A stretch of DNA of 64,000 nt from Dudresnaya verticillata (lineage: Eukaryota), in NCBI GenBank assembly GCA_977862235.1, contig OZ374558.1:1364001-1428000 (forward strand), read 5' to 3'. Below the pieces are notes generated by a model that was given only the letters and a program-made list of their open reading frames with translations, was not told the origin of the DNA and ran no database searches. The position numbers were made by a program, and so were the translations under genes. Below, one piece after another: positions 18,682 to 57,241 of the stretch. Within the stretch, counting starts at the first letter, position 1. Every line of letters begins with the position of its first letter.

Positions 18682-19723
18682 AATGCTAGAATGAGTTGTG
18701 TGCGCGTCTGATTCACAGTCTGTAACCCCGTTGTCGTCCGTCACAGCGGAGCCAGAACATACACAAAGGTAAGGAAGACTGTATTTGACTATGAACGTCT
18801 TCCCGTATGAATGATCCAGACAGGCGCAGTGGGCATCCAGTACGGGTCCAGAATCTTATACATGATTGAGAGGAAGATATTGGTGCATGCAGAGCGCGCC
18901 AATAAAGAAAATCCAGTTCACACCTAATAGACAAGCGCTGATCTTCGTGTTTCACAAACCGTTTCGCTTTTGCGCGAGCACATAGTTAGTAAAGCAGTAC
19001 TGATTTCGATCTGAACAGACACAATGGCGGGAAAGCATATGCAGACGTAGGTCTATGGGCAATGCTGTGGTATCGCAATACTATGTTTACATTGGAGAGC
19101 TTCACTTGAGCCACCCGTACGGGTGGTTCAGAGCGTATGGGATACCCGGAGATGATCCAATGAGTTTCAGTTCCTCGGTTATAATGCGACAGTGTCTGCA
19201 ATAGATTCATGTATAGGCCCAAGAACAATGATATGGCAGATTTACAAGGAATATAATTATTGTTTTACAATCCTGAAAAGGCTGTTCGGGAACAACGTGT
19301 CTGTAGGAGCGGGAGAAGAGGGTGTAACTCACGCTGTTACCGAGGCTTCTGTACAGAAATATCTCCTAATGAAACCAATGAAACCAACGAATCACTGGTC
19401 TGGCCCGATAAAATCATTCTTTGAGGAAAAGGTGAGCGAGACACTTGCAATTACGTGTCACTATCTCTTTCCATCCGGAGCTCCTGCAGGAAATGCGTAC
19501 GCAATGCTTTGCTAATGTGTTAGTGTAGCACAGTAATGTACATTAGAATACCCGTCGCGAGAGCGCAGGGCTCCATGGAGCGACTGCAGTCGCGCGACTC
19601 TGGCGTGTATCTTATGCACGCCCACAATCTACTCAACGCACTAGCAGAAGCAATTGTCGACCGTACGGTCATTCGCGAGCAACACCTGATCAAGTATCAT
19701 CCCATCGAGGCAACTTTCTCAAG

Positions 19724-21381: not shown

Positions 21382-21669
21382 TACTAGATTAGTATAGCAG
21401 TAGCTGTAAAGCTCTTACAAACATGTCCAACATGCATGTTGCGTAAATCAGCGTACCCTTGCGAGTGAATTTGTGCGCGCATGCCCACGCGCGTACGCGC
21501 ATGGGCCCCATGGGGGCGTCCAGTACTACAGCAGGTGATATTGGTCTGGCACGGGTCGAGTATTGTTCCCGCAGCACATTTCTTGCTGGGCCAGACCAAT
21601 GCCCAGTAATGAGAAAATTTTAGAAATAAATGTATTGCCCCAGCGCAGCATTTTTATTGGGGTTTTCCA

Positions 21670-21686: not shown

Positions 21687-22520
21687 TTTTATTTCCTCGC
21701 CATGGGCGTCGATAACCTCGTCGACCGACGGACGGTCGCCTGGAACGGCTCAATCGCCGTTGGCACGAACACGTCATCGACGATTGGTTACAGACGCGCG
21801 CGTGCCACAATGCAGCGCCGCGCACGCCCGACGCACTGTACGGCGCGACGCTGCAGAGCGGATCTGGATGATGCATCGGGATTAACGAGGTGTAAGGGAA
21901 TTTACTGTCAGGTTGGCCCGAATCCCGATCAAATCCGGATCCGACATCCAGATCGAACATCGGGATCCGCTGAAAGGGAAATACACTTGTAATACGGTGC
22001 CAATCGCGATCCGAATCCGCATCGCCTACAGCACCGGACGAGTACGTCTGCAAGACGTACGCCCCGGCGCACGGCGGCTGCATTGTCCCGGGACGTGTCA
22101 GACGCACGCCCAAGCGACACGCGTCCCGGGTTTCCGCGCACTACGTCATGCAGCCGCCGCACCGCGGCAACACAGCATTACTTAGCTACCCCGTCTAGGA
22201 CGTAACAGTAAAGCCCCGGCAAGCCGGTTTGGGTCTAGACGTCCCTTCCGCGACAGCGCGCACCCTACCGCTGCCCGGAAGCATAAGCGTCTACCTATCC
22301 GTGTTTCCACGTTCCTAACCGTTGTTAACGTGTTTCCTTTTGGGTTTTTTGCCCCTTTTATCCACTCGCTCTGGGTATTTACAGTCCGCCCTAGGCGTGT
22401 TCAACCTGCTCTACCAAGTTCGCTATTAGCGGCTACCCACCGGGCTCCCGAACGGCCCTGAGGTGTTCTCCGTCTTCAGCACGACGTTTGCACGACAGTA
22501 CACGCGGCGTCGCTAGTTAA

Positions 22521-27139: not shown

Positions 27140-28711
27140 ATGACCTCTTTTTCCCCATTCCACTCCCGATACACAGCCATTGTGCTTCTCTGCGTTGTGG
27201 CATCTTCCCAGAGTTGCACCTCTGCGCACAAGACGGGAACGCTGACGGAGACCAAGTTTTCAATCAATGAAGAATTCATTCTTACAAACGAAGCCATCGA
27301 CGTTGCAGAGCTTATTGAGAAGGTGATTAAAGAAGAGCCCCCTTCTATGGATGGAGTTGATGCAAGGGGCGATGCAAGCGATAGATCTCTGTTAGTACAA
27401 ACTAGGCAAGAGCAAGCCTTGAGCAAGCAGAAAAAGATGAGAAGAAGGTTGAGGAGAAAGTTCCGGAATTGGGCAAGGAAATATCGTAGAGCAGAAAGGC
27501 GGAAGATTAAGAGAGGAAAAGTAGATCAGGCTTGTCTTATCAACGACTACGAAGAGCGTCATGGTTGCTGCGAATTGAAAATTCGTGTCGAGGACGAAAG
27601 GTATGAAAGGAAGACAGGGAAGGCGCCGTTGGTGAAGTTTGGGAAAAAGGTTGCCTTCTGTGAGAAAGTTACTGAGGAGCTGTTCAACTCGTTGACAGAG
27701 GAGAGCATCCATCTGCCGGCTGACGACGAGAATAAACTCGTCTGTGACCTGAAGGAAATGGTAGCTCTGTTCCCACCAGATCTTCAGCCTGTCGCCGCGT
27801 TTTCTGTGAAGGCGTCTGCGCTCAGCTCCGGAAATGTTACGACACAAGTCGAATCGACGACGCGAAAGTCAGTAGAAGAGAAAAGGCAGCGCTACAAGGC
27901 CAAGCTGAAGAAATCGCAGAAGCGCAGCGAAGCGAGAGCGAAAAGGAGGGAACAAGCTCGTCGCGAGCATAGGGAATACAGGATACATCGTATCCACAAT
28001 AGTAGGCTGGCAGGGTTCTTGAGTACCATGACAAAACGATCGAAGCTAAAGCATAGAAAGGCGTCTCGACTGGGCGTGGACGTTTTTGACAAGTTTATAG
28101 TCGAGATGAAGAAATTGTACAAAGCCAAGAAGACTGCGGTCTACTTCCATGCTGCAGGGAAGAAATGGAAGACGTGTGCGTTTGTTGAATATAAGACAGC
28201 GTTATCCTCGACATGTTTGGACCTAGAAATCATTGATCCTAATGCCGCAGAGATGTCCCGCCCTCCTATTTGGGGCTGGGAATCTGGAAGAGCAGCCACT
28301 TACAAAACCACCAGTCCAGAAGAGAAGATGGATGCCGTTGATCGCTGGGATTGGTTATTCAATACGTTCAATAATGGCGGTGGCGATGACGGCGGCGACG
28401 GCGCTGACGGCGCTGACGGCGCTGACGGCGTTGACGGCGAAGACGACTATTACGACGAAGACGAAGATGAAGATGAAGATGATGAAGATGATGAAGGTGA
28501 TGATGACGAAGATGACGACGACGACGACGACAACGATGACGACGATGACGACGACGGGACGTCTTCTTCTTACACAAGCATCTACCTTTTCGGATCGCCG
28601 TCTCAATGCTTCACAGTTGATCTGTCGTTCTCGTGCTTCGCAGTGTGTTGCGATACATTGTATTCGTACAGCATATTTTGTTCTACACCTAATCTAAGCT
28701 GCTTCGCATAG
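27140..28711 (+). CDS. Secreted precursor paralog 1 (523 aa, intronless): K/R-rich body, Asp-rich spacer, C-terminal 6-Cys peptide
   Basis: Signal-like AIVLLCVVASS; W-x2-C-(A/G)-(F/W)-(V/I) motif shared with paralogs; ends CFTVDLSFSCFAVCCDTLYSYSIFCSTPNLSCFA. Confidence 0.8.
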   Translation: MTSFSPFHSRYTAIVLLCVVASSQSCTSAHKTGTLTETKFSINEEFILTNEAIDVAELIEKVIKEEPPSMDGVDARGDASDRSLLVQTRQEQALSKQKKMRRRLRRKFRNWARKYRRAERRKIKRGKVDQACLINDYEERHGCCELKIRVEDERYERKTGKAPLVKFGKKVAFCEKVTEELFNSLTEESIHLPADDENKLVCDLKEMVALFPPDLQPVAAFSVKASALSSGNVTTQVESTTRKSVEEKRQRYKAKLKKSQKRSEARAKRREQARREHREYRIHRIHNSRLAGFLSTMTKRSKLKHRKASRLGVDVFDKFIVEMKKLYKAKKTAVYFHAAGKKWKTCAFVEYKTALSSTCLDLEIIDPNAAEMSRPPIWGWESGRAATYKTTSPEEKMDAVDRWDWLFNTFNNGGGDDGGDGADGADGADGVDGEDDYYDEDEDEDEDDEDDEGDDDEDDDDDDDNDDDDDDDGTSSSYTSIYLFGSPSQCFTVDLSFSCFAVCCDTLYSYSIFCSTPNLSCFA

Positions 28712-29466: not shown

Positions 29467-30096
29467 ATGTCGCTCCGAATTGTCCCCCTTGTGTGCGCAC
29501 TCTTTGCATCACTCCTCATCGTTAGTCGTTTTGCAGTAGCAGCTCCAACAGATGAGAAAATGTCTCAGTCGACATTGTACAAACCAACCAGATTATTTTC
29601 CGCCTTTCAGCACATTGTCGAAAGCGTGGATTGGGTTGGTCTTCTCAACTCTGTTTCTCAATACAACTCTGGAAACTACCACAACTTCTTGCACAACGAC
29701 GCCTTCGGAAACTTTTCTGAGCAAATACCCGTCTACAATCCCCCAAGCACAGAGCAAGCGAATGCATTGAAGACCAAGCTGGAAGCATTGGAGCTTCTCG
29801 CCCTCAACGCCTCACTCTCTCCGCAAAACAAAACAGACTGGCAACCATTTGCTTCGGGACTAGTCTTTTCTTTCGGCAATGAAACTGCTGCCATGGCTTA
29901 CCACTGGGAGAGACAGCGGTGGATAACATGTGGCTTTGTCAATCTTACTAGCACTGTCGTAGACAAAAATGAGTCTGTCCGAATGTGTGCTTCAATGCAA
30001 TCTGTTGGTCTCTCACCTCCGACCAGGGCACCTATTGAGGGTCTTGACTACATTCTCCCAGCCTCAGGTTCTTCCTCCAATGACGGTGATGACGAT

Positions 30097-30139
<43 letters not shown>

Positions 30140-30311
30140 ATGACGAAGAAGAAACCTCCAATCGAGACTATTATAGCGACTACTACTACAACACAAGTGA
30201 CGCCACCGAGGTTAACTTGGCATCACCCCAGGTAGTTTGTACGTATCCAACAGTTGCGCACGATGAACTTTCCATTCCGTTGCATGAGCAATAATGCGAC
30301 AACTAACCAAG

Positions 30312-36928: not shown

Positions 36929-37203
36929 TGTCGGGGGCGAAGGGACGGGAGGTGGGCGGGTGGGGGAGTGGCGTTGCGGTGGGATGGGGCGGTGTTCCGG
37001 GGAGGCGGAGTGCCTCCACCTCATCGGCACTGCCTGTGCCGAGGCGTTTGCTTTCGCGTTGCGCTTTGCGCGTGCGAAGTGCCAGTACGGCGCGTGTCAT
37101 TGGTCGGTGACGCGGGATTCGCCGCAGATCTTTCCACCTCGATTGCATGCAAATCGTTGGGCCACGGCGAGCCCTACCGCGTTGCGACACGTGGCACAGC
37201 AAA

Positions 37204-37774
37204 TGTAAGACGGACTGTAAGACACTGTAATTAGGTACTGTAACCCTAGACGATAGCCGACGGCCGTCCGTACGACGTGACCGATTCCTGCGGGATACTT
37301 AACCGGCTGGCCACCGCGGTCATCCCCTCGACCGTCTTTCCGGATCATCATTCAATACAGTAAACCTCGTGTCTCCCACATCGTAGCATCGACTGGTCAA
37401 CGTTTCTCCTTCTAGCCGCTGTAGATTCCTTGGCTGAGATATTGCTCACTTTCGTAACAGCTCACTGCCGTCGGCGTTGAGTCACAAGAATCTGAGCTAC
37501 CGCTCGGGACTTGTTCACCCGCTTCACCGCACCCTCCCAGCTTCTCACTAGGGCAGAGTCTCACCACCCCGCCGGTCCGATGTTGAACCGCCCGGTAGTA
37601 GTATGGCGCAACGAGTCAGTAGCCCGCTAAACGGAAAGGACAACTGTCCCGTACGCGCACTGACCCTAACGAGGGTATCTCAATGGGGCGTTGGTAGATC
37701 CTGGAGGGAAAAGGGTAAAAAGGGCTAGCGTCCCTGAAAGAAAGGGCAAAAGGAGCGGCGCCACCCTAACACTC
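37204..37774. repeat. Probable LTR-like repeat, left part; continues at 52064-52987
   Basis: Non-coding, begins TGTAAG, similarity patches to 22521-23330; both sides joined by TSD GTAGA. Confidence 0.35.
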
Positions 37775-37788
37775 GTAGATATAGTGCA

Positions 37789-38698
37789 AGTGGTGCAAAA
37801 CGTCTGACACGATAGACCGCCGAGCAGTTCGGGGCTCGGTGGGTAGCTGCACCCTTGGCGAGAGGTGGTCCTGCCGTGGGCGACTTGGTGGTAGAGCAAA
37901 GGAACACGCCTTGGGCGGACTGTAGACGACCGCGGCGGAAGGTGTGAAGGAAGGGAAAAGGAAACAGAAAGGGGACACGTCAAGGACGATGGTAGACGTG
38001 GAAGCACGGGAGGTAGACGCTTAGCCGTGGGCAGCGGTAGGATACGCGCGTGCGGAACGGGGAAGTCTGGACCAAGGCCGGCTTGCCCGGGCGTTTACTG
38101 TTACGTCTGGGACGGCTTACCTAAGTATAGTACGGCGTTGCGGCGGCGGCGGTGCGTGTGCGTAGCGCGGGAACTCGGGACACGTGTCGTCCCGAGGCGC
38201 GTCTGACAGATCACCGGTTGCATGCAGCCGCGCGCCTGACAGGTTGCCGTGCAACCCCCTGTATAGGTGCTTACACACACACGTGGACGCGTGGGCCTTT
38301 CAGCCGTGCGTGCGCGCGCACTGTAGAGCGTGCGCCTTGGATCTAATCCGATACTTGTCTGATCCCGATCCCATCCGGATCGGGCCAGCAATGCGAATAC
38401 CCGCAGCCTTACAGGCGCGTATCTTACAGCTTAGGCGATCCGGATAACCAATCTGGATACCGGATCCGGATCCCATCTGGATCCGTATTACAGTGCCCCG
38501 GGGCGCCACGTCGGGCCATCACCGTACAGTGCCCGCGTGGCGCGCGGCGCGCAGTGTGCACGCGCGCCCCAGTGAGCCGGCGATGACGTGTTCGCGTGCC
38601 AACGGCGGTGGTGAGCGCCGGTGGCGGTTTCTCCGTCGGTTGACGTATTTGGTCCGCCCACTTTCAGCGAAAAAGGGCTCACCTCCCCTTGCACCACA
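37789..38698 (-). repeat. 3' LTR of Gypsy B
   Basis: Direct repeat of 50249-51158; polypurine tract GGAGGGGGG adjacent at 38702-38710 on the minus strand. Confidence 0.96.
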
Positions 38699-38853
38699 CG
38701 ACCCCCCTCCAAAACGCGAACACGACCCGACCCTCAACCTGCTGTCGTGCGCTCTCCCGTCGTGTGCCTGCCAACTTCCGCGCCTTGCCAGCGAGTCCCC
38801 GCGCCTTCGCGTATTGTGTCGGTGCGCCCGCGTTTACGCTGCCCCGACATCAT

Positions 38854-39236
38854 CGCCCGTGGCGCATAACGTTGTCCGTCGTTGACGTCTATCGTATATC
38901 CCTCGCCTGGGGCGTTGCAACTTAATCGTCATCGGCGTCGTTTGTCTTTGGCATCGCCATTGGCGCAGCAGCCGAACGTCGTTGACGCGGGTTCCCTTTT
39001 CTCGCCTAAGGCGTCGCAACAGTAGTCGTCTTCGACGTCGTTTGCTTTTGGCATCGCCATTGGCGCAGCAGCTGAACGTCGTTGACGTGGGTTTCGTTTC
39101 CTCGCCTAAGGCCTTACAACAGTAATCGTCTTCGACGCACGCTTCTTGAAGCTTTCGCCAGTGGCGCAGAACACGAGTCGTCTTTGACGTTTGTACAAGC
39201 ATCACCTTTGGCGTTAACATATTCTCGTCGTTGACG
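38854..39236. repeat. Degenerate 50-bp tandem array (8 units), each with CGCC-N3-GGCG and CGTC-N3-GACG palindromes
   Basis: Motif starts at 38854, 38877, 38904, 38927, 38955, 38977, 39003, 39027, 39055, 39077, 39103, 39127, 39156, 39179, 39203, 39226. Confidence 0.9.
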
Positions 39237-39238
39237 TC

Positions 39239-41540
39239 ATGCCGATGTTCAATGGCATGCAGGTGGCGGCGCCCTCGGCTGCGCCGGTGTACGCTTCGCC
39301 GGTCGACTTCGTCGGAAATAATCCTCGCGATCACGCGCATTTCTTCGCGCGGGCCCCCTGGTTTGACCAGGAGGCCCTGCGCGAGGAAGAATTGGTTGCC
39401 CATCACGCTACTAGCGGTTTCTTGCCGGCGGCCTGCCCCTCGGCGTCGTCTGGACGTTGGAATGGAAGTTACGCTGCGCCGTTCCTGCGGAATGGCTTTG
39501 GGTGCGAGTGGGACAGTCGCGTGCGGACGTCCACGCGCAGTTCGTCTCAGACGTGTATCGTCGCTTCACGCGGTATCCGGGGTCGACGTTAACGCCGCCC
39601 TTGTTCAATTATGATGCGGGACAGTATCGCACAGCCGGCGAAGCCGAATATGGTGCTCGTCTTGGGACGTTATCGCTCAAACACGTGAGTGTGTCGATTG
39701 AGCCTCGCGTGTTGGGAGAGGCCTACCTGTTAGGCGTACGCTTGAAAGCGGATTTTCGTTACTTGCATCGTACGGGTACGTTCTTTTGGGAGCGTTGTAT
39801 CCGGTGGGAGTGCGAGACGCGTCGCCGAAAGGGCGTATTCGTACCTTACCAGGACATGCAGGTCGATCGCATTGAGCGTAGTAAGTTACCGTTTTGTTTC
39901 GTGAAGGTACCGCCTGTATGGCGAGAGTTTGAGATATGCGAGGGTTTCTCCGTAGAGCTTCCTCCGTGTGTCACGTATCGAGCTGATGACCGACCCCTAT
40001 TCAAGGTATTGGATCGTGTTTTACACGGAGTGGGTCGCCAATGTGGCGTATGCGTGGTTATGGGAGGCGTATGACACCTTCCGTATGTACCACTTGCCTC
40101 CGCGTGTGGTGGCTCAGCTTGGCAGCCTCGACTTGGTCGAAATATTTGGCGGGTCCCGGAACGCCGAGGAGTTCTGGAACCTGCGCGCTGTGGCGGATGA
40201 GATCGACTGGAACGACCCGGCAATGGTGCCGTATGCGAACAACCGCCGTAAGGCGAATCGTCCGCGCTTCGCGATGAGTCGGACTCACTCCGCCTGTGGC
40301 GATTGGGTCCATTATAACCCGTAGACTAAGCGTCGTACGACGAAGAACATTGCGGAGCGCCATCGCAAAACGGACCGCTTCACCCCGGGTAATCACCCGC
40401 GTGGTTTGCGTAAGAGCTGCGACTTTGTCGGTGATTTTCCTCCGCATTTGAGCGCCTTAATGGCCGAGGAGGATGCGTTTAACGCCGATGGCGGACCGGA
40501 GAACCCGTCTGGGACGGACATTGCTGCGCCTATGGCGGTTGAGTCGACTGCCGAGCCTGCGCCCGCGTCTTCGGCTTTGCCCGGAGGCGCTGTCGGTGGC
40601 GGTGGAGTGCCAGCTGGCCTGCCAGCTGTTTCTCCTCTGGACCTTGCGGCTCCCGTCGCTGACGATGATGGCGATGCCGTTATGGCGACGCCAATATTGG
40701 AGTCGGCTCCGCCGACCGTGACGCCTCAAGGCGAAGCATCAAACGTCGCAGACGGTTCTGGGGGTCCAGCTTCGGTGCCGGTTTGGACCGAAGAACAGCG
40801 CCGCACCGTGCTTGCGTTATTGCAAGCGGCAGGCGTCGCTACTAGCGGTCTGAGCGGCTCACCCACTGAGTGGATGAGCCAATCTTTGTCGGCTGGGGTC
40901 CCACCTCAGGGTGGGCCCACGCCGAAGTCGACTAGTGTCGTAGGTTCTGCGTCGAAGGACGGTGTGGCAGAGAAGCCTTCGTCGCCTAAGGCGAATGGTC
41001 CGGCGTCTAAAGACGTGAGTATGACTGTACCGCCTGTAGCGAGCGAAGCGAATGCCGCTATAGCGTCGTTGACGGTTCCAAAGGGGCCAGGGGCTCCTGC
41101 GTCATTGACTGGTGTTGGTTGGTTGGTTAACAGCACCGAAGGCGAGTGAAGAAGCGACGACAATCAAGGCGGTTTCTGAACTGACGCCAAAGGCGGTCGA
41201 CGAGTCGTTGATTACGCTTAAAGCGGATGGGGCTATGCCCGCGCCTAAGGCGAACGATGGCTTGAGCTCTGCGCCCGTGGCGGTTGTTATTGCTTCATCG
41301 CCTTTGGCGGATATTGTCGCGACGACGCCGAAGGCGATTGATGAGTCGCCCATCTCGCCTGCGGCGCCTGTTATAGTCACTCCGGCGGTTGCGGTGGCAA
41401 GGGCTTTGCGGTCCGCCCCGGCTCCTGCCGTGAGTGTACCGTCGAGGACGGAGGACGACCTCTATGAAGAGGCATTGCGTGAGTCCGCCGAAGGCGCCGT
41501 GGCTGTACCACCCGATTCGTCTGCGACGAAAGAGTCTTGA
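39239..41540 (+). pseudogene. Antisense extra ORF of Gypsy B (~765 codons; frameshifts near 39440, 39975 and 41130; TAG 40322-40324)
   Basis: Chain of overlapping ORFs 39239/39457/39968/40406/41112; W/Y-rich globular part similar to CACTA ORF2, then A/P/S-rich tail. Confidence 0.75.
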
Positions 41541-42845
41541 TGTCGTTTGAGCAACGGATAGCGGACGCGAGGTGCGTATTGTGTTGCCCTTCGGCTCCCT
41601 TGCGGGACGGATGAGCGGGGTATTCCCCTTCGTCTTTGACGATTAATGTAGCTGTAGTGGTCGATTGCTAGGGCGTGGGGTTGTCCCCATTTGCTTTTAG
41701 CCCAGTAACCTTCGGCCATTGTCAGCGTCTTTGTGTGTCGCGTTTCGCGTTGGCCTTAGGGTGTGACTTGTGATCCACTTTCTACTTTGCGTCGTGTTCT
41801 TGGTTGCCCGCTACAGTAGCGTTGGCGTTTGGTGCCATTGGCCTTAGCCGTGCGTTGGCACTTGGCTTTGTTTGCCCAGTAGGGTCCGCTGTAGTAGCGT
41901 TGTTCTTTGTGTTTCACGCGCGGCGTTGGCGTATTTCCGCTTACTTAGCGTTTTGTTTTTGTAGTTCATGTGTCGCACTGCGCCTTGGGCGTGGTTTGTT
42001 GGGTCACTGCGCCTTGGGCGTGGTTTTTCGGCGTCCTCGACGACGGTCGCGAAGGCGGTGAGGTAGGTTTTGACGCCTCGGAGTTGCCGCCCCTTTCGTC
42101 TTCGACGTTTCTCGTTGTGGGTAGGGTAGAGTTGTCGGTCGCGCTCGCGCGACTGCGCGGCGGCCGCAGGCAGCGGCGGAGTCGTTGGCGATTTGTTGGC
42201 GCGTCGTGCACGGAACCCGCAGCAACTGCGTCTTCGGCCACGTTCCCCCCCCCTTCGGGGGTGGGTTTGTCGGTGCGCCCCTTCTCGGAGAGTTACGTCG
42301 GAGACGTTCGATGGGTCTGGCTCGCGAGACCGTGGCCGGCAGGGTGGCGGTCCCAGGTACTTGGCCGTAGGGCGAGGCACGTCTCGACGTCGGAGACGGT
42401 TGTTGTGCGCTGCCACTTTGCACCTGTCGTCGCTGGTGCTCGTAGCACCTGCTCAGCAACTTGGCATAATTGCGTTCGTCGTGCGTTGACGGCGGGGTGG
42501 TGCGCGCTGCCGTGTTTGGAAATTAAAATTGGACCCATGTCTGCCTCCTATTACCCGAGGGGCGCCGGTGGCGGATCTCGATTTGCAATCTGGATCACTG
42601 TCAACAGCGCACCCATCCAGAGGTTCCGTATGGGGGCTGCTGCGAGGTGGCGTGCGCGAGGCTGTCTATGACGCAACGACTTGCGTCCGCGTTCGTCCAT
42701 GGCGTGCACACGTGGTTGGCGCTGTCGATCTGGCGACCGCGTCTACAGGCTATGGGTTGAGCTTCCGCGCCTTTGGTGATCGTAGGTCGAGCACGCGGTC
42801 TCGATCGTCCGTCCATTCGCTTCCAGCGGTATTTCCGGATTAGGG

Positions 42846-43058
42846 TTAGCCGCGCTGCGCGTCGTCGACGTTTGGCGGCAGCTGCGTACGTTTTCGACGG
42901 TGGTATCGTGTGACGTGGGAGCGCGGCAAACTGGAGACTGGCTCCCAGGTGTTCGCTGAAGCGGGGTATCCAAACCACTTGACGCGGTAGAGGATCTCAT
43001 CATCATCCGCGTATGCGTGCGACTCTATGCGTTCAATCACGTATTCTTTTCCGCTCAC
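42846..43058 (-). other. Chromodomain at the integrase C-terminus
   Basis: YVIERIESH...YRVKWFGYPASANTWEPVSSL; same frame as the integrase, beyond TGA 43224-43226. Confidence 0.92.
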
Positions 43059-46000
43059 AGCGTTCGGCTTGGACGTGGGCCTGTCCAGCGCCTTTGGCGG
43101 TTTGTCTCGTTGCGTGATGGGCGTCTGTTCCGGCTCGGCGAAGCGTACTCGACGAGTTGATCGCCGGAGGCGTTGGCCTTGGGCCTTGGACGCTCGATCA
43201 GCGGTCAGTGGATTGTTGCGTCTTCAGACGAGTTCATCGCTTGCAGCGCCTTGCTTTGTGCTTGCACGGTTAACGTCTTCGTTATCGGACGCGCTTTCAG
43301 CGGAGTCATTGTTCTGATTCGGCGGTGCCGTAGCGACGTGTTCCAAACGGGTGCGAACCCCTGGGGTACTGTCGTCGTTGGAGACGGATTGTGAAGCGCG
43401 GTCGTTGGGATCGGCGGGGAAGGGCGAAAGCTCTGCCAACCCACGGCTGCGTGACGCGGTGATCGTACGCTCTTGCGGATCTGCCGCAGTATGCGAAGTG
43501 TCTGCGTCCTCTTCCGGGTCCGCTGGTGGTGTGCTTGGGGTAGTCATCCCTTCGTCGTGTGACGTGGGGGCGACTGCTCCCTGCTCCTCAGGCGGGCCTG
43601 GTGGTACGACGATTGGAGGGGCCGCCTGACCCGGTGGGGTCGGCGCCCAGACCACGCGGTCTCGGGACAAACGTTCCCGCTCATCACGTCCCTTGTCGAC
43701 GGTTACTGTTTCGTTATCAACGTGAGTTACCCGGTATGGCCCGTCCGCCACTGGCGCCAGCTTATGCTTACGCTCTGCGCGATCCGTGCTCCCGCCTCGG
43801 GCGAAGCATTCCTTACGTACGAATACGAAGTCGCCTACGGCGATTGTTTCCTTCGATTTCCTTAATCGGGTATCGAAGTTTCGTTTGTAACGTGCTTGAG
43901 TTTTCTCTAACGACGCTTTAGCGGTTCCCATCAGTGCGGCCAGCCAGGTTCGCCACTTGGTGTAGTATTGCCCCGCGGTGGGTACGCTTTCGAGCGACGG
44001 TTCCGCTTCGAGCGACAATGGTCGTGGTGGCTTCAACAGCACCAATTCAAACGGAGCGAGATGCGTAGACGAATGCAACTGTGTGTTGTATGCGAACGTC
44101 AAGGCATCCGTGAACAGGTCCCAGTATCTCGGATGATCCGCAACGTAGTGACGCAGCGAGGCCAGGATGGTTCGATTGAATCGTTCTACCTGGCCATTGC
44201 ATTGCGGATGGTACGTCGTGGTGAAGAGGTTCTCCACTCCCAAAAGACGGCAGATATCCTGAAACAGCTTAGCCACGAACTGTGGTCCGTTATCGGACAA
44301 CAGTTTCTTGGGGGGGCCGTACACGAAGACCCAATGTCGTACAAACGCCTTAGCGGTTTCCAATGCCGTAATACCACGCAGTGGGACCGTCCGGACCAGC
44401 TTCGAGAAGCGGTCCACAATGACGAGTAGGAACTTGTTTCCTCGCTTCGTGCGTATGAGTTCGCCCAGGATGTCGATCGATACAAATTCGAGAAGCTCGG
44501 TTGCCGGGAACAACTTCAATTGCTTGGTGTTCTTTCGTAGTAATACTCGATTCTTAGCGCAAGTTACGCAGTTGCGGACGGTCGCATAGCAGTCCACTGG
44601 CATCGATGGCCAATAGTATTCGCGTCGAAGCGTATGATACAACTTACGCCCCCCTGGGTGCCCTGCCAACTTGGCGTGGTGCCGGAGGTGGAGTAAGCGA
44701 GCGCGTAACGCGGAGGGTACGACCACTTGCGGACGGACTTCCACTGTTCGGACCAACAGGCCCTGTTCATCCGTTGCGAACGGTAATATGATTCCGTCAT
44801 CCAGACGCTTCTTGACATCATTACAGTACTTGTCATCGCCTTGGGTGTGTACCAACTCCTCATGCGTCACTTGACGAAGGAGTACCTCATCCGCCGGTGG
44901 CGTGTTGTTGATCAACACTTGGTCGAACTCTTCGAACTCTCGCTCGGCGAAGGCGACCTCGCCTTCGGCGTCTGACAGATCTTCCTGTGACGTTTGATGG
45001 CCGTCTTCGACGTAGCTTCCGTGATAGCACGGTATATCATCGTCAATGGGCTCGACGGTTTCTCCCTTCGTCTGTAGACGCGAAAGGGCATCTGCCTGGG
45101 TATTGAGGTACCCCTTTTTGTACTTCACGACAAAGTCGAACTCGGAAAGGCGAAGGCGCCACCGCATTAACCGTCCAGAGGGGTCGCTGATTTCCATCAG
45201 CCACCTCAACGACTAATGGTCCGTATGGACTGTGAACGACTCCATCTGGAGGTAAGGTCGCAGCGTCATGACGGACCTACTGCGAGGCACTCCTTTTCGG
45301 AGACCGAGTAGTTACGCTCTGGAGCGGTGAGCGAGCGGGACCAGAAGCCGAGCGGCTTACGTTCCCCGTCGGGATGCGTCTGAAAGAGAGCGCAGCCGAC
45401 CTGATACTCGCTTGCGTCACAATCGACGGAATTGGGGAGACCCTGCTGTGGTAAAGCCAATATAGGCGGATGATTCACGGCCTCGACGAGCGTACTGAAC
45501 GCTTTGGCTTGTGTCTCATCAAACGGTTGTAACCGGAAGTCCTGTTCCTTCCTCAGCAACTTGTTGAGGGGGGCAGCGACATGCGCGTATCGCGAGACGA
45601 ACCGTCTGTAGACGTTACAAAGACCGAGGAAACTCCGTAGCTCCTTCTGATCCCGTGGATGCTTGGCTTCGCGTAGCGCGGCAGTGACAGTTCGGTCAAC
45701 TTCTAACCGTCCTGGACGTATGACGTGTCCTAAGTAGTTGACGGTCGGGGTGAAGAAGTCACACTTGATCAACTTCAGAGTCACCCCGGCGCGGTGCAAT
45801 GTCGAAAGGATCTCGTCAACATGACGGAAGTGACTATCGATGTCGTTGGAGAAGATTATTACGTCATCGAGGTAGACGAGGCACGAACGCCACTTGTAAC
45901 CAGCGAGTATTATGTCCAACGTTCGTTGAAACGTAGCGGGTGCGTTCGTGAGACCGAATGGCATACGCTTATAGCGGAACAGTCCGGCGTGGCACGTGAA

Positions 46001-47560
46001 CGCAGTCTTGTCGCGGTCTCGCGGATTGATCGGCACTTGCCAGTACCCACTGTTACAGTCTAGGGTGGTGAAGACGTTTGCTTCCCCTAGACTGTCGATG
46101 CATTCGTCGATACGCGGCAGGGGTACGTGTCCCGTATGGTTACTGCGTTTAAGCGACGGTAGTCCACGCAAAAGCGGAGGGTCCCGTCCTTCTTGGGGGC
46201 GAAGACCACTGGTGACACCCACGGCGATTGTGCGGGCTCGATAACCCCTTGACGCAGCATGCGGTCCACTTCCGCTTGAGCGAGTTCTCTTTGCTTCGGG
46301 CCCGCTCGGTAGGGCGGGGACGATATTGGTCTAGAGCCGGGAAGCAAGTCGATGTAGTGCTCCGTGGTTGAGATTTCTCCCAACGAACCGTCCCACATAG
46401 ACGAATACTTGCGCAACATCTCCTTAAGCCGGCCTTGATGCTCGGCGGGGAGATGTCCCAGGTCCAAATCGTCTACTGACGGAGGTTTGGCAGTGGTTGC
46501 CTCGATAGACTTCGTGAAAGTATCCGGCTGTGCCGCAGTGTTATCATTCGTTTGAAAACGGAAATCTTGGTTTGCCTTCTCTTCCTCGGCTTGTTCCTCG
46601 GTGAGGCCCAAAACATCGGCTAGACTTACGTGACTGGGGAACACTGCTGTCGGATGTGGTAACGCCGTCGCGACGACTTGGGCCTTGGCCAGCGCCTGCG
46701 GGCGGGGAGAGAAGTTGGCAACCAGAATGCGAAACGCTTTTAGCGGCTCCACTTGAGCAATCCCGTTCGTAACGGCCAGAACTTGTTTGTCGTACAGCGT
46801 TACGAGCGGTTGAATCGTGATGATGCCGGCGCGCTCGGTGGTCACCGATACCCATTGCTGCGCCTTAGGCGGGATGATCGCGCGCTCGGCGACTCGGATC
46901 TTGGGTGACGTCCTCCCTTCGGCCTTGCCGTATTCCTGTTCCGTTGGTACCGGAGGGTACGACGGGGGTCGGCGCAGCGGGCGGCGCGTTATAGGGACGC
47001 GAGTCCCGTCATCCAATTCAACCTCGCGACTTCGCGGATATATTGCTTCGACGAAGCGGTCGCAAAAGTCGCAGCCGAGTATAACCGGCGCAGCGAGTCG
47101 TTCGCAAACGATCAGTTCCAACTTGACGACTCTCCGTCCTAGACGAACGACCAGGTCGATGGTGCCTCTTGTCTGGATCGCCTTATTGTTGGCGTCGGCT
47201 ATGACGGGGAGGCTCTTTGCCACGATGCACGATCGCGCTTCCAGCGGAATGTCGTTAATGCGAATGAAATTCGGACCAGCTCCGTGTCGAGAACAGTGAG
47301 TTTACGTGCCAAGGTACTAACGGTTGCGCCCAAATCGGCGTACACCTTATAGTTCCTCTTGGCCATTACGAACAACTGCCCTCGCGTTTGGGGGGCTGGT
47401 ACCTTCGCCATGGGCGTTTTAATGACGTCTGTGACGACTCTATCCGCCCGTTGGCGTCATCGGTAACTAACTTCGGGCCCTCCTTCCGTGTCAGCACCTG
47501 AGGCCTAGGCCTCTCGTCGTGGTGCGACACCCCAGTGTCAGGAGTTGGTGCCCGAGTTAG
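42846..47560 (-). pseudogene. pol: Gypsy B pol (protease, RT, RNase H, integrase, chromodomain) with several frameshifts and a stop
   Basis: [51 protein letters not shown]...CVTC, IDILG, SDNG, ERFNRT. Confidence 0.95.
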
Positions 47561-50121
47561 TTTTTCGCCTGCGGCGGTGGTTGTGGCGCTTCATAGCGAT
47601 TGATCATCGTCGGATGACGTTCTGCCGCGTGCGGCATGGGTCCGCCTCGTGGCGATTGTGGTCGTGCAGCACGGCGAGCAGCGTCGCGGGTCGCGCGTTC
47701 CTTGCAACGTACATACGCATCAGCGCGGACACCAGCCTTCTCGGCTTCGGTTAGTCCTTCATAGTTGGTAATAACCTTTATGAAGTCGCTCATGCAGAGG
47801 AAGCAGTCCGGCGCGATGTGTCCGCGGGCGTAGCATTGGTGGCATACCAGCTGCCGACGCGAGTCTTGACGGGGCGGGCCTCTGTCCTGACATCCGGGCC
47901 TTTCTCGGTGGACGTGAGGAGCATACTCGGAATAGGGGACGCGTGGCGCTGGTACGACCGAGCGCCCAAAGGCGAGAGCAGGGTCTATATCCCTTTCGTC
48001 TTCGTCATCGACGCAACTGTCCGTCGGTAGAGCCGAGGTTGGCACCGACGCTTGCTCGTCTGCCAAGTACAGATCGCCTTCGGCGTGTGTTTCCATGTCA
48101 TCGAAAGGGCGACTAACGTCTCGAAACTCGACGGAGGGCTCCGCTATCATAGCGCGCGCTCCAGGCTTGGTGCCTCTAGTCTGTGGACGCAGTAACCCTC
48201 GGGCATCGCCGATGGCGGATCGCGGTGTGCGTACGGCTTGAGCCGGTGTCAATAGGTCACGTCGGGCTGACGCGGAACCGGCCCTGCCGTGTCGTGCGCG
48301 GTTGGCATCCCCTTCGTCTTGTGCGAAATGGACCAGCCGCTCAAATGACAACTCCGCCCTTGGCGTTTCTTCTCGGAAGCGAGCGACCAGGGACCTGATC
48401 GACGGGTCTAACCCGTCGATGTACAGCGTCATCTTTTCCCAATCGGGATATACGTTACCGCAACGAATACACGCACCGGCTAGCCGCATCCCATAGGTCG
48501 TCTTGTCCTCGCCTTGTTTTTGGGCAGTCGACCGTAGGGCGAGGACAGCGTCCCTGATCGCCGCTGGCGTAGTATACGTACGGAGGAGGTACTGTACCGC
48601 CTCCGGATACGAAGACACACGGCCGCGATGGCGAGAAGACGTCGACTTAACGGAGCGGAATTGCGTGGCTGCCGTACCTCGCAAGAATTACGGCAGCGCG
48701 ACGAACGCTTGGGCTTCGCTCATCTCCAGCGTATCGGCTTCATCCGCGTAACGCGTCAGAAACTCGAGGACCATGACGGGGTCGCTGCCGTTGAAGGCGG
48801 CGTCCTTCATGGTCAGCTCCAAACGCTTGATATGGTCCTTGACCTTACCCGTATCGCGCCCTGAGCGTTTTTGCCCTACGTCTTTGAGACGGTACGTCCT
48901 GTACGATAATAACTGATCGAAAAGGGGGTTGGAGGGGCGTAGCTCCTTCAACCCCTTGAACCGCTTTCCGCGAGGTCTTGAGGCACTGCCGAGAGTTGGA
49001 AAGTCGTCGTCTTCAGACGAAGAGTCTGATAACTCTCCGTCACTTGACGAGTCCGAAGAGGACGAGGATGAGTCCCCTCGTCGATGACGATCCTTCTTCC
49101 GTCTCTGACGCAGCTTGCGTCGGCGTTTCTTCCGATCCTTTCGTCTGTGACGATCTTCGCATGAGCTCTCGTCACCCGACGGTGGACCATTGCGCCACTT
49201 GGCGGTTTCGAGACGCTCTAAGCGAGTCCTAAGTCGCTGAAAGCGTTCGCGTGAGCTAAGCTCGGAATGCGAATGAACCGTTACTGCCGGCGGTGGTTGT
49301 GTACCCTCGCCTTGGGCGTTTTGGTTCGTCAATAGACGGTCGAGGTCGGATCGAAGTCCTTGTAGGGCGCCGTTTCGATCCTCTTCCAACGTCTGTAGAC
49401 GACTTGCGATTCCTCCGACACTGTCGTCCAGCAACCCGGCGAATCGAGCGAGCATCGCATCGTCCTCTAAGACGCACACCTCTCGGATCCGTTCGCGTGG
49501 TATCGTTACGTTACTCACGCGGACGGCCGAGGGTGACGCCGTTGGCGGTTGGCTTTCGCGGTTTGACCGGTCGGGCGTCCCTTGCGCCCTTTGACTTGGC
49601 GACTTCGGCTTAGCCGGCGAACACCCGGCACTGCCGTGGGGAGTGGGGCAACATGCCCCTTGTGTCAATGGTTCGTCAGCGACGTTGCGCTCCGCGGAGC
49701 GCCCTTGATCGTCGTTGACGTGGTTGGTTGGTTGATCCGAAAGTTCCGGTTGTCCCTCGACGATGTCGGCTTGTGTTCCGTCTACGACGTCCTGTTGCTC
49801 GGCTTGTACTGTATCAGCCGAGTCAACATAGGAGCGGTAGGTGCGGAGGGCCGATCCCTCGGGGACTGAGGTGCGGACGACGACGGGGTTGTGGCGCGTC
49901 GGCGGGGGAGGTAACTCTCCTCCGTTGAGCGACGCGTGGGAGCCTGCGTGGCCGTGGCCCGGGGGTAGCGTTGGGAACGCCGACGCGATCTCGGGGCTCA
50001 CGAGGCGCCCAGACCTCGTTGTCATCCGCTGTAGCGACCGTTCTGACGCGGGTACACTCCGAGGCGTCGAAGACGGTCTTCTTGAACTTGGGCCTCGCGA
50101 CAGCGGCGGTCGTGAGGCCAT
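47557..50121 (-). pseudogene. gag: Gypsy B gag with one in-frame TAA (48688-48690)
   Basis: Two same-frame ORFs; YRTYRL motif; zinc knuckle CHQCYARGHIAPDC; ends G AAA AAC TAA. Confidence 0.9.
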
Positions 50122-50230
50122 GATACAATCGTAGAGTTGCTTGAACGTCGTGGATGATTAGCGACAAACGTCTGAAGACGGAGGGTCGGACGTCGCACGA
50201 CGGAGTAACTCGTTGAAACGTAGCACAATT

Positions 50231-50246
50231 CTAGGTCGGGAGACCA
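50231..50246 (-). promoter_or_regulatory. Primer-binding site of Gypsy B
   Basis: TGGTCTCCCGACCTAG 2 nt after the 5' LTR. Confidence 0.9.
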
Positions 50247-50248
50247 GA

Positions 50249-51158
50249 TGTGGTGCAAAACGTCTGAGACGATAGACCGCCGAGCAGTTCGGGGCTCGGT
50301 GGGTAGCTGCGCCCTTGGCGAGAGGTGGTCCCGCCGTGGGCGACTTGTTGGTAGAGCAAAGGAACACGCCTTGGGCGGACTGTACACGCCCGAGGCGGAA
50401 GGTGTGAAGGAAGGGAAAAGAAAACAGAAAGGGGACACGTCAAGGACGATGGTAGACGTGGAAGCACGGGAGGTAGACGCTTAGCCGTGGGCAGCGGTAG
50501 GATACGCGCGTGCGGAACGGGGAAGTCTGGACCAAGGCCGGCTTGCCCGGGCGTTTACTGTTACGTCTGGGACGGCTTACCTAAGTATAGTACGGCGGTG
50601 CGGCGGCGGCGGTGCGTGTGCGTAGCGCGGGAACTCGGGACACGTGTCGTCCCGAGGCGCGTCTGACAGATCACTCATCGCATGCAGCCGCGCGCCTGAC
50701 AGGTTGCCGTGCAACCCCCTGTATAGGTGCTTACAGACACACGTGGACGCGTGGGCCTTTCAGCCGTGCGTGCGCGCGCACTGTAGAGCGTGCGCCTTGG
50801 ATCTAATCCGATACTTGTCTGATCCCGATCCCATCCGGATCGGGCCAGCAATGCGAATACCCGCAGCCTTACAGGCGCGTATCTTACAGCTTAGGCGATC
50901 CGGATAACCAATCTGGATACCGGATCCGGATCCCATCTGGATCCGTATTACAGTGCCCCGGGGCGCCACGTCGGGCCATCACCGTACAGTGCCCGCGTGG
51001 CGCGCGGCGCGCAGTGTGCACGCGCGCCCCAGTGAGCCGGCGATGACGTGTTCGCGTGCCAACGGCGGTGGTGAGCGCCGGTGGCGGTTTCTCCGTCGGT
51101 CGACGTATTTGGTCCGCCCGCTTTCAGCGAAAATGGGCTCACCTCCCCTTGCACCACA
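50249..51158 (-). repeat. 5' LTR of Gypsy B
   Basis: TGTGGTGCAA...TTGCACCACA inverted termini. Confidence 0.96.
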
Positions 51159-52987
51159 CGTCGTTGACGGAACACCGCCGAGCAGTTCGGGGCTCGGTGG
51201 GTAGCGACGCCCGTGGGGATGAGTAGCCTCGCTTTGGGCGACTTGCGGTAGAGCAGTTGACTCGCCTTGGGCGGACTGTAAACGCCCGAGGCGGAAAGGA
51301 AGAACAGGAGAAACAAAAAGGGAACACGTCGAAGACGGGTAGAGACGTGGAAGCACGGGAGGTAGACGCTTAGCCGTAGGCAGCGGTAGGGTACGCGCGT
51401 GCTGAACGGGGAAGTCTGGACCAAGGCCGGCTTGCCGGGGTTTACTGTAACGTCTGAGACGGATCAACTAAGTATAGAATTACCTAGCGGCGGCGACGCG
51501 GGTGTACGCGTCACGCGGGAACTCGGGACACGTGTTGTCCCGAGGCGCGTCTGACAGATCCGTCCGTCATGCAGCCGCGCTCCTGACAGATCACGCGTAG
51601 CTTCCCCGCTCGAGTCCTTACACCTACACGTGGATTACTTCCTTACAGCCGCATGCGCCCCATGGCGAGTGCGATCTCGATCCGCACCAATCCAGATCCA
51701 GTCCGGATTCGGGCCAGCCATGCGGATGCGCCAGGCTTACAGGCGCGTGCCTTACACCCCTTAATCGCGATGTCTGATCCCGATGTGGGATCCCGATTGG
51801 ATCCGGATTCGGGCCACGCTTACAGCGAACGTTCCCGCCACTGCGCCATGCGCGTACGCGTGGCGCCGTACAGTGCCCGGGTCCAGGCGTGCGGTCTGCA
51901 TTCCAAGCGAGCCGTTCTGGCCCAAGTGGCCAGCGGCATGCGTCGGTGACGTGTTTGCGCCGCGGGCGGGTTGAGCGCGCCGTTGGCGGTCGTCCGTCGG
52001 TAGACGAAGAATATCAACCCGCTTGAAAGCGAAAAAGGGGGACCCCCCTGGCACTACAGTAGAGTACAAAGCCGTACGAGGCTAAAGCTTTTAAAGCACC
52101 TGGAAGGGGAGTACGGTGAGCCCGTGTAGACCAAAGAAAGGGTACAGACCCGAAACCCACCGTAGGGTTCTATTCAGCAGACCCCTGCTAGTCAGGGGCG
52201 CAATAAATATGGCGAAGGCCGAAAGCGCCTTCGCCGCTATTCCTATTCTAAGCTATCGTAGTTAGCGTTAATACTTACAATGAGGTAGTGAGCGGTCTGA
52301 CTCCGCCCTGCGCACGTCAGGTACTCATGACTCGGGCACGCTCCTGCGCGTAAGGCCATGATAAATCAGCCAATCACGGCAAGCCATCTCATTTGCGCCG
52401 TTCTGTTCCCAGCAATGAAATTTGGAGTGGCCAGGAATGCCCTGGGTCTTACAGTGCGTCCGTACGGGCGGCACCTTACAGGCGCATGCCACGCGCAATA
52501 TTACCCGAGCATTGTGGCACACGCATGACAGGCGCAAAACACGTGTACGTGCTTACAGCCCCTGGCGGCGTATTGTACCGCACGGCCCTCTCTCTAAAGC
52601 TGAGAGACCCGCGAAGCCAGCAAGGCTGTTTCCATTGGCCCGGTTGGGGCGGACGTGCAGTGGACGTCCCAAACGGCCCGTTGAGGGCAGTTATAACCGC
52701 CACCAAAACGCCCGTCTCACGACGCGCGAGGGCGACAAATCATTGCACGCCCGTCCGGCGTCGGTGTGGTGAAATGAGCTGTTGCGCGCATGCCGCACGC
52801 CGACGGTGAGTCAACCGTAACGGGTGATGTGGCAATACGCCACGCTGATGATCTGGCAACGTGTAGCCGTGTCGGGTGTGTGCGCATTACTGTGCACTGG
52901 TACGCATCGCTGTACTGTAAGCGGAGCGCACCAACCGTAGCGGAGTATTTGTATTGTAGTATTTATTCTTTATTTTTAGTGAGCATA

Positions 52988-55957: not shown

Positions 55958-57061
55958 TATGGTGCAAATTATCCCACGCCACTGGCGCTCTGTACCGTCC
56001 TAGACGGATACCTCCCGTCTTTGACGTTTCTACCGCCTTTGGCGACTGGGATCGAGCTCGAGGCGCGAACCCGCTCGTGATCCCTGTTTCCGCCGATGGC
56101 GCTAGTCATTCGACTTTGTCGGGCAACTTGGCCAAGAACCAGACCTCCCGCTCACAGCGGATAGTGACGGCAATGTCGGGTTGAGAGAACGCGTGAGGTG
56201 TAGTTACTGGGTCACGCTGCCGCGCCCCGTGACGTACTTGCACACGTGGCACGTGTCACTGGGCAGCGGAGGACAATGGGACCAAGAGTCTGTAAGCGCG
56301 GTGCGTGAACACGTGTAGGTGTAAGCAATAGCGCGGCGCGCGCGGTGGCGTGGGCAAATGTGTCAGGCGCGCGGCTGCATTAAGAGGGCGCTTGTCAGAC
56401 GCACGACGGAACGACACGTTTCCTGAGCTCCCGCGCGCCGCAGCGCCACCACCGTCGCCCACGCAGCAGTAGTAATACTTAGGTAACCCGTCTAGGACGT
56501 CACAGTAAACCCCGGCAAGCCGGTCTGCCTTCACAATTCGCCCCTTCGCTCGATAGCGCCACTGCCGCTACCGACGTTGGCTACGCGTTGTGACGATCAC
56601 GCTTCCGCGTCAATGTCCGTCTTTGATGTGTATCCCCTTTTGTTTTCCCCCCAAGAAGCTCGGTAGTTCTTCACCCCCAGCGCTCAAGAGCGGACATCAC
56701 CGCTATTAGCGTGGGCTACGTGCCGGACTACCACGCACTCATCCACTCCGTCGTGGACGTGTGTTTCCCCTTTATGGCCTTGGTAGCCGAATGCCCCTTC
56801 CCGCTAGTGGGTGCGTCGCCACCGCTTCCGTTGGGCAAAGCGTCGGTACCCCCGTCCCTCCACGTTCAACACCGTCATTGACGTGTTTCCATTTCCGTCT
56901 TGTTTCGTTTCTTTGGTTTCGACCTACCTACCGCCCAGGGCGTTTACAGTCCGCCTTGTGGCGTTGTCCATGCTCTACCACCCCTACCGTCTCTGACGTG
57001 CTACCCGCCGGGTCTCGAACTGCCCGGGCATTCTTTTCCGTCCTAGACGTTTTGCACCACA
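55958..57061 (+). mobile_element. Gypsy solo LTR (1104 bp) inserted in Gypsy C gag
   Basis: TATGGTGCAA (TG mutated)...TTGCACCACA; TSD CCCTC at 55953-55957 and 57062-57066; shares CCGTCTAGGACGTnACAGTAAA with LTR 21687-22497. Confidence 0.88.
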
Positions 57062-57241
57062 CCCTCCGCAACGGAATGCCCCGATATTATCAGTGGAGGA
57101 CCATGACGGAGTGGAATACGCGGAATTGCGCGAGCCCATGGAGGCGGATCCGACTGGTGCACCCTTGATTTCGGAAAACTCAAGGGGGGACGCGTAAGGG
57201 CGCCGCCATCCCCGCCTCACGGCGTTCCACTTCTCGTTAGT

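Follow-up and report, generated by a model that had tools for sequence, protein, structure and literature searches.

A row of palindromes that stops beside the start codon of an antisense gene, inside a Ty3/Gypsy element, raises the question of whether these palindromes are control sites of that one gene or part of a larger pattern. An earlier note on this DNA had described 16 CGYC-N3-GRCG sites, three of them off by one base, with CGCC and CGTC subtypes alternating at a pitch of about 25 bp in a 50-bp unit present eight times. It had proposed that they are binding sites for a dimeric protein, arranged either as an operator/enhancer array for the antisense gene or as a loading platform for an element-encoded factor. 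In this work, we read the array over positions 38600-39500 of the window, that is, of the whole 64-kb stretch of DNA analysed, to which all coordinates refer, and we combined this reading with a regex scan. The description of the array proved accurate: 13 of the 16 sites are perfect for the CGCC or the CGTC subtype (starts at 38854, 38877, 38904, 38955, 38977, 39003, 39027, 39055, 39077, 39127, 39156, 39179 and 39226), and the other three deviate by one base (38927, CGTCATCGGCG; 39103, CGCCTAAGGCC; 39203, CACCTTTGGCG). The two subtypes alternate along the array with start-to-start spacings of 23, 27, 23, 28, 22, 26, 24, 28, 22, 26, 24, 29, 23, 24 and 23 bp, a pitch of 22 to 29 bp, and the sites fall into eight units that can be aligned with one another.

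The element that carries the array (Table 1) is a minus-strand Ty3/Gypsy chromovirus, with Pfam domains in the order RVT_1, RT_RNaseH_2, Integrase_H2C2, rve and Chromo on the minus strand. The TG...CA ends are present in the 5' LTR, and the first base of the 3' LTR copy differs. No target-site duplication was found, the sequences flanking the element (...GTGCA and CGTCG...) being different; as the right flank is itself a related LTR, nesting or recombination is likely. About 4.1 kb separate the chromodomain (42846) from the 3' LTR (38698). Read in sense orientation, the array follows the last coding region and precedes the polypurine tract, from which it is about 140 nt away.

Table 1. Position of the element, its parts, the palindrome array and related features within the 64-kb window.
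Feature	Positions	Strand	Description
Whole element	37789..51158	no strand	CGNN-N3/4-NNCG module in 193 perfect copies, of which 138 have a 3-nt loop
3' LTR	37789..38698	minus	911-bp repeat, 98.1% identical to 5' LTR; element sense is the minus strand
ATG-free stretch	38584..39238	plus	from within 3' LTR, through the array, to the aORF start codon
Polypurine tract	38701..38712	minus	GGAGGGGGG (minus strand), just upstream of 3' LTR; read by eye
Palindrome array	38854..39236	no strand	16 CGYC-N3-GRCG sites, 8 units of about 50 bp
Youngest array core	38901..39137	no strand	period-100 tandem repeat, 2.4 copies, 85% matches; also a direct repeat
Antisense extra gene (aORF)	39239..41149	plus	conserved core about 39248-40430, then low-complexity tail
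Phased run of 7 modules	41185..41366	no strand	pitch 27-30 bp
gag-pol	42846..50157	minus	broken by stops and frameshifts
Chromodomain	42846-43223	minus	
Integrase	43224-45212	minus	
PR-RT-RNase H	45266-47301	minus	
gag	47557-50157	minus	zinc knuckle CX2CX4HX4C in translation
Phased run of 6 modules	49109..49245	no strand	inside the gag frame
Primer-binding site	50232..50248	minus	TGGTCTCCCGACC..., directly after 5' LTR; putative, read by eye
5' LTR	50249..51158	minus	reads TGTGGTGCAA...TTGCACCACA
Diverged LTR relative	51158..51756	no strand	77% identical; abuts the element

The array bears the marks of tandem duplication. Tandem Repeats Finder returned a repeat of period 100 in its core (Table 1) and one of period 50 at 38936-39088 (3.1 copies, 62%), the latter being the older of the two. 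Since a two-site unit was duplicated, the 16 sites do not represent 16 independent events, and both the phasing and the alternation of subtypes can be traced to the duplication of this 50-bp unit. In an alignment of the eight units that was anchored on the stems, pairwise identity was 88% in stems, 55% in loops and 43% in spacers, and the columns that do not vary numbered 11 of 16, 2 of 6 and 2 of 31, respectively. Within the three youngest pairs of units, 2 of 48 stem positions differ, as do 24 of 85 spacer positions. The claim that the sequence between the palindromes has diverged more than the palindromes themselves was thus borne out within the array, as it was in a comparison of LTRs discussed below.

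Strict CGCC or CGTC sites are by no means confined to the array. The window holds 109 of them, against 3.84 expected per 64 kb under a first-order Markov model of the window (maximum of 9 in 50 simulations), and only 13 of these lie within the 383-bp array. The element accounts for 81 (6.06 per kb); three stretches with diverged LTR relatives hold 7, 11 and 8, and the remaining 43.7 kb of the window only 2. When the inner stem positions are left open, so that the site becomes the module CGNN-N3/4-NNCG, 193 perfect copies are found in the element. Per kb, 12-16 of them occur in gag, RT-PR, integrase, the antisense-gene region, the stretch 41150-42845 and the 5' LTR, 8.8 in the 3' LTR and 34 in the array. 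Across the LTRs, gag, pol and the pol-3'LTR region, the excess amounts to about 17- to 30-fold. Within gag and pol, the modules occupy every codon phase (14, 23 and 30 copies). Outside the array, 37 of 178 distances between neighbouring modules measure 18-23 bp, compared with about 12 as read from the bins of a random placement, and phased runs of three to seven modules occur, including within gag (Table 1). No common motif was found in the linkers between modules. A rule of alternation for neighbouring stems outside the array was also considered and rejected (same stem in 16 of 70 cases, 11.6 expected). Neither CpG methylation nor CpG decay finds support as a source of the pattern, the observed/expected ratio of CpG being 1.31 in the element and about 1.0 in other elements.

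The array is, then, the densest patch of an element-wide set of modules and is not different in kind from the rest. A module that fills the whole element, at 8.8 to 16 copies per kb against 34 in the array, argues against the proposal that the array is a dedicated operator or enhancer of the antisense gene.

Which property of the module is maintained can be read from its variation. The element has 280 CG-N7-CG 11-mers, and in 138 of them (49%) the two inner pairs are both complementary; the share is 31% for N8 and 4-6% for N4, N5 and N11. At least six stems are enriched (CGCC 42, CGTC 36, CGCT 13, CGCG 10, CGGC 9 and CGAC 7 copies, with about 1 expected each), and the two arms of a site depend on one another: CGCC and CGTC half-sites are combined in 81 matched and only 2 mixed sites. 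The only enriched arrangement is the inverted one at a gap of 3, plus a gap of 4 for CGTC, and everted and direct arrangements of half-sites showed no enrichment in the element. Pairing stops after the fourth pair. A fifth complementary (Watson-Crick) pair occurs in 23 sites, with 47.1 expected, and pairable flanks, G-T included, in 47, with 81.1 expected (n=185 sites for both). Stems with a single mismatch are about as frequent as chance predicts (172 vs 147), and those with one G-U/G-T pair are barely enriched (43 vs 29.3 on the plus strand and 23 vs 19.1 on the minus strand). The loop, or central spacer, is free in sequence and AT-rich, being T-rich on the plus strand. There are also marginal hints of the plus strand as the folded one, namely the G-T stems just mentioned (43 vs 29.3) and the G-T flank pairs (24 vs 34 expected, each figure being the sum of two table cells).

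Matched arms, six stem types and flanks that avoid pairing indicate that self-complementarity is what is kept, and not a fixed word. As judged from these sequences, what is conserved is a stem that is self-complementary, has four pairs, no more and no fewer, and carries CG at its base. The third and fourth stem positions are nevertheless biased (Y in 85% and C in 70%), a bias which implies that some sequence is read besides the pairing. The same three features, that is, the dependence of the half-sites (81 vs 2), the variety of stems and the anti-complementary flanks, tell against a single sequence-specific dimer as the dimeric protein of the earlier note.

Conservation of the modules was assessed on the LTR relatives at 51158-51756, 21700-22440 and 56290-57075. 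Compared with these three, the stems of the 5' LTR agree at 189 of 224 positions (84%), the eight nucleotides beside them at 236 of 400 (59%, Fisher 2e-11 vs stems) and the loops at 54 of 88 (61%), in three comparisons that share history and are not independent, the comparative set consisting of one element copy and three LTR relatives from a single window. Sites still perfect in the relatives number 7 of 10, 5 of 8 and 3 of 7; several loops have been replaced altogether, and in one site a compensatory change had occurred twice over (CGTC..GACG to CGTT..AACG). The LTR pair of this copy presents the opposite picture: they differ at 17 positions, five of which fall in stems, all five breaking sites in the 3' LTR, so that between them the stems decayed faster than the remaining positions. 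Stems kept in the relatives and broken between the element's own LTRs point to maintenance in the replicating lineage and decay after insertion. Taken together, these comparisons suggest that the element carries one self-complementary module some 190 times, protein-coding sequence included, that selection appears to keep in the active lineage and that seems to be lost once a copy has inserted.

The excess is confined to this lineage. It was absent from six short metagenome contigs with an integrase 51-68% identical (1-2 sites each, 0.6-1.2 expected) and from the other retroelement fragments of the window, which are more distant and gag- and protease-like, and on both counts the modules are private to this element lineage. 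No integrase relatives were found among the viral contigs or the genome contigs searched, and relatives in the protein library are at most 58% identical. A pattern scan for three phased sites returned nothing beyond isolated chance matches, all in prokaryote and viral contigs rich in GC, with high site densities only at short loci of 70-80% GC. Apart from this element, a neighbouring unrelated DNA element in the window was seen to have GTAC-centred palindromes of its own, with arms that vary and are perfectly complementary; a sequence-specific dimer cannot explain palindromes whose arms vary in this way.

The gene behind the array (aORF) withstood closer study, as did its position, the final array site ending at 39236 and leaving a gap of 2 nt before the ATG at 39239. 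Its middle piece (219 residues) has 109 homologues at E <= 1e-3 and 40 at E <= 1e-10 among 1.84 billion representatives, and in tblastn 40 homologues are colinear with the window, from 39248 to about 40430, in three pieces in frames 1, 0 and 1. A match in three pieces and two frames means that this copy has suffered two frameshifts, in addition to an in-frame stop within the core at 40322-40324. To judge from homologues compared as proteins, the aORF represents a real and conserved antisense protein family, broken in this copy. The plus strand before it is free of ATG for 656 bp (38584-39238), the longest such gap in the element, in which ATG occurs 10.4 times per kb and the next longest gap measures 380 bp. 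This stretch is a candidate for the promoter and 5' leader of a predicted antisense mRNA.

No Pfam family was found in the window pieces of the antisense protein or in the 54 family members scanned, a word-based search with the protein gave no match, the ESM Atlas yielded nothing of use, and the best hit of a PDB sequence profile, UHRF1, was not significant (E = 0.57). The predicted fold of an intact homologue is a confident one (pLDDT 91, pTM 0.89); Foldseek returned no match to it at E <= 0.001 in PDB or BFVD, and the best Z in the wide VIA-align comparison was only 2.2. Neither sequence nor structure comparison thus recognised a DNA-binding family or fold in this protein.

The reading that we prefer, a serious possibility that we stop short of calling probable, is that the array is a tandem-duplicated cluster of an element-wide palindrome whose copies act as 4-bp mini-hairpins in the RNA or cDNA of the element, are read by an element-encoded protein and do not form a duplex operator of the antisense gene. 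As to the modules themselves, their most likely function, we infer, is that of mini-hairpins in element RNA or cDNA. The modules would fold as hairpins in single strands of the element, the candidates being the genomic RNA (with the array in its 3' UTR), the first-strand cDNA and the leader of the antisense mRNA. An element-encoded protein, perhaps the zinc-knuckle domain of Gag or the product of the antisense gene, would then bind them as a multivalent platform, and the array, where duplication packed 16 modules into 383 bp, would be the strongest platform. Packaging, reverse transcription, protection of single strands and translation of the antisense mRNA are the steps of the life cycle that might be served. 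Of the two roles proposed earlier for the array, a loading platform for an element-encoded factor may still hold, and a dedicated operator of a single gene is unsupported in the form proposed.

Arms that co-vary, a loop free in sequence and flanks that avoid pairing favour a hairpin in a single strand over a site for a dimer on duplex DNA. The predicted energy of a module hairpin averages -3.8 kcal/mol as RNA and -3.0 as DNA, which makes it marginally stable. Other results count against the hairpins, as does the faster decay of stems between the two LTRs of this copy. The mini-hairpins do not dominate the minimum-energy fold of the array. The whole array folds no better than shuffled sequences (z = -1.05 for the minus strand as RNA and -0.86 for the plus strand as DNA), and Rfam gave no matches at the gathering score on either strand of 37000-52000. 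The missing fold signal and Rfam match, together with the intolerance of wobble pairs, the stem bias and a spacing of about two helical turns, keep a duplex reading alive.

According to this duplex alternative, which we consider unlikely, one or several homodimeric factors, encoded by the host or by the antisense gene, bind the palindromes in double-stranded form, and the array is either the promoter, operator or enhancer of that gene or the principal zone for loading a chromatin platform with which the element is coated. It has several points in its favor. Symmetry is strictly Watson-Crick, with wobble pairs little tolerated, and strict symmetry of this kind also fits recognition of duplex DNA. 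Arm length and CG ends are fixed, with a preference for Y and C at the third and fourth stem positions, the spacer in the centre is AT-rich, and the preferred spacing of 18-23 bp comes close to two turns of the helix. In addition, the array abuts the antisense ATG inside the 656-bp ATG-free stretch, the gene is real and family-specific, and Drosophila gypsy, with 12 Su(Hw) sites in its 5' UTR, offers an analogy. The half-sites, however, speak against it. Mixed sites are nearly absent (2 vs 81) although both subtypes are common, and at least six stem types are enriched, so that several homodimers that never mix would be needed. Moreover, a symmetric reader would give symmetric flanks and those observed are anti-complementary, the sites are spread evenly through coding regions, the array pitch of 22-29 bp strays from one face of the helix, and searches with the antisense protein recognised no fold or family that binds DNA.

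Less likely still is that the modules are a by-product of mutation, made and repaired as perfect short inverted repeats by template switches or hairpin-templated correction in the course of reverse transcription or replication and multiplied by tandem duplication in the spacer between pol and the 3' LTR, with no function of their own. As far as the account in PMC8794818 goes, template switching has been reported to make perfect hairpins and apparent compensatory changes, and both the decay of modules once a copy has inserted and the lack of a thermodynamic signal over the whole array would agree with such an origin. A copying error, on the other hand, would explain neither the constant CG at the two ends nor an arm length of exactly 4 bp, and it would leave a fifth pair at chance frequency, when it was observed at half of it. 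Nor does it account for stems that, beyond mere pairing, are identical in sequence in relatives 61-72% identical elsewhere, or for related Gypsy elements that have a like reverse transcriptase and are without modules.

Some retroviruses carry a constitutive transport element or direct repeats before the 3' LTR. That the array alone is a repeated cis element of this sort in the 3' UTR of the genomic RNA, serving export, stability or packaging, with the dispersed modules as unrelated background, would suit its place about 140 nt from the polypurine tract, its repetition and its conserved stems, yet we think it very unlikely, since there is neither a significant overall fold of the array nor a match to an Rfam family and since the identical module is conserved in the LTRs, gag and pol, so that the array does not stand apart as an element of its own kind.

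If the mini-hairpin reading holds, its consequences reach beyond this locus. A module spread over the whole element calls for a reader that recognises nucleic-acid shape and acts on the element as a whole, and the module itself offers an experimental handle, in the form of matched against mixed arms and of four against five pairs. Should the reader be the antisense protein, with its confidently predicted fold and no known relatives, this would be a first function for such extra genes. The second class of palindromes, in the neighbouring element, hints that mobile DNA may use such a strategy more widely, in a way comparable to the iterated palindromes of cyanobacteria. It is tempting to go further and to speculate that some 190 CG-clamped mini-hairpins of 4 bp and 3 nt, about 20 nt apart in genes, LTRs and the array and maintained by selection, constitute a private "hairpin code" read by Gag or by an antisense product of undescribed fold, and that, with the GTAC-centred code of the neighbour, iterated palindromes are a general self-recognition device of the mobile elements in this genome; we regard this extended proposal as rather unlikely to hold in full.

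In the open-access literature searched, no paper on palindromes of this kind in a retrotransposon came to light, and the closest parallels come from several quarters. In Drosophila gypsy, the 5' UTR contains an insulator array of 12 Su(Hw) binding sites. As in that array, a few hundred base pairs of a Gypsy-type element hold about a dozen spaced copies of a motif, with less conserved spacers. Su(Hw) sites, however, occur in one region only and form an asymmetric word read by a zinc-finger protein, whereas the motif described here is self-complementary, has arms that co-vary and is spread over the whole element. Single-stranded RNA viruses possess dispersed packaging signals, stem-loops with a common loop motif and variable stems. 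The resemblance lies in many short and weak stem-loops distributed over a whole genome, genes included, with stems that vary, and those of the viruses are thought to act as multivalent protein-binding sites. In the present case, by contrast, it is the loop that is free and the stem that has CG ends and a fixed length, and Gag is a candidate binder only.

A further parallel is HIP1 (GCGATCGC), described in PMC4390886 as a highly iterated palindrome of cyanobacteria. Like HIP1 as presented in that account, the module is a short palindrome over-represented many-fold throughout a replicon, coding regions included, for which selection or biased repair may be responsible. As a word, HIP1 is fixed; it is linked to DNA methyltransferases and occurs genome-wide in a prokaryote. 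The arms of our module, unlike those of HIP1, vary while staying complementary around a free 3-nt centre, no methyltransferase was seen in this case, and the excess belongs to a single lineage of retrotransposons in a eukaryote.

The nearest relatives in architecture are the plant Retand/Tat Gypsy elements (Retand, Grande and RIRE2), for which antisense extra ORFs and tandem-repeat arrays in the region between pol and the 3' LTR are described in PMC11963269; the two have been known together in plant Gypsy elements and have gone unexplained. The element studied here shares the main traits of that description, namely a pol-3'LTR region that is long, here of about 4.1 kb, an antisense ORF within it and a short tandem-repeat array (periods 100 and 50), conservation of the antisense gene among relatives being judged on protein homologues. 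It differs in being a chromovirus with a chromodomain, and its antisense protein has neither TRP28 (PF04195) nor any other Pfam family in the window pieces and the 54 members scanned. Its repeats also differ from those of the Retand/Tat elements, as far as these are described in PMC11963269, in that they derive from a palindrome that pervades the coding regions and the LTRs, so that the array in this element is only the tip of an element-wide pattern.

The antisense gene of the Ty3/Gypsy chromovirus (39239-41149, plus strand) is a member of an uncharacterised protein family, of which 109 cluster representatives (P0121-P0229) were collected. No Pfam family was found for it, and the predicted fold, a confident one (pLDDT 91), had no match in the PDB or BFVD, the best Z being 2.2. 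Several residues are near-invariant across the family, among them D112, R117, E121, E175, R176, R179 and E216 (P0121 numbering); they are possible constituents of an active site or a binding site.

A further stretch of CG-type modules, the short CGNN-N3/4-NNCG palindromes of the element, lies in an open frame (see table). Its pitch runs in multiples of 3 and the modules match a repeated peptide T/A-P-K-A, CGCC-AAA-GGCG giving ..PKA.. on translation. This is either a coding repeat built on the palindrome or a palindrome run that mimics a coding repeat. Five differences between the LTRs break stems in the 3' LTR (37789-38698) and none do so in the 5' LTR (50249-51158); three of the five are CpG transitions, and the skew could be due to chance, unequal decay or conversion. 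Around the element lie diverged LTR relatives that belong to its lineage. One of them directly adjoins the 5' LTR of the element, and no target-site duplication was seen, which suggests a nested insertion or recombination between related elements.

Other features of the window
Feature	Position	Strand	Remarks
Separate element with GTAC-centred palindromes	2558-21495	ORFs on both	~19 kb
Diverged LTR relatives	51158-51756; 21700-22440 (rc); 56290-57075 (rc); 55961-56100		71-77% identical
Run of 7 CG-type modules	41185-41540	+ (open frame)	27-30 bp pitch
Ty1/Copia polyprotein fragment	60867-63998	+	open; gag, integrase, start of RVT_2; continues past window end
GAC/GAT-rich repeats	28373-28572; 30070-30179	+	9-12 bp

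In the separate GTAC element the perfect palindromes number 112 and measure 8-18 bp, most often 12. Their arms vary in sequence with complete complementarity; they lie some 80-200 bp apart and run through large ORFs on both strands. Their excess breaks off abruptly at 21495, the point at which the CG-type modules set in. All six large ORFs tested from this element were without a Pfam family, and the minus-strand ORF 4960-8952 within it resembles Plavaka/KDZ transposase clusters solely by language-model features. The GAC/GAT-rich repeats encode Asp/Glu-rich tracts in two ORFs, neither of which gave a Pfam family, and no CG-type modules were present in the Ty1/Copia fragment.

Directly before the antisense gene, the final module of the 16-site CGYC-N3-GRCG array (38854-39236) and the bases that follow it form TGACGTCA at 39232-39239, an octamer that overlaps the antisense start codon at its A. 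Two further CGTC-type sites of the array are likewise followed by GACGTC. TGACGTCA is a perfect octamer of the CRE/bZIP type.
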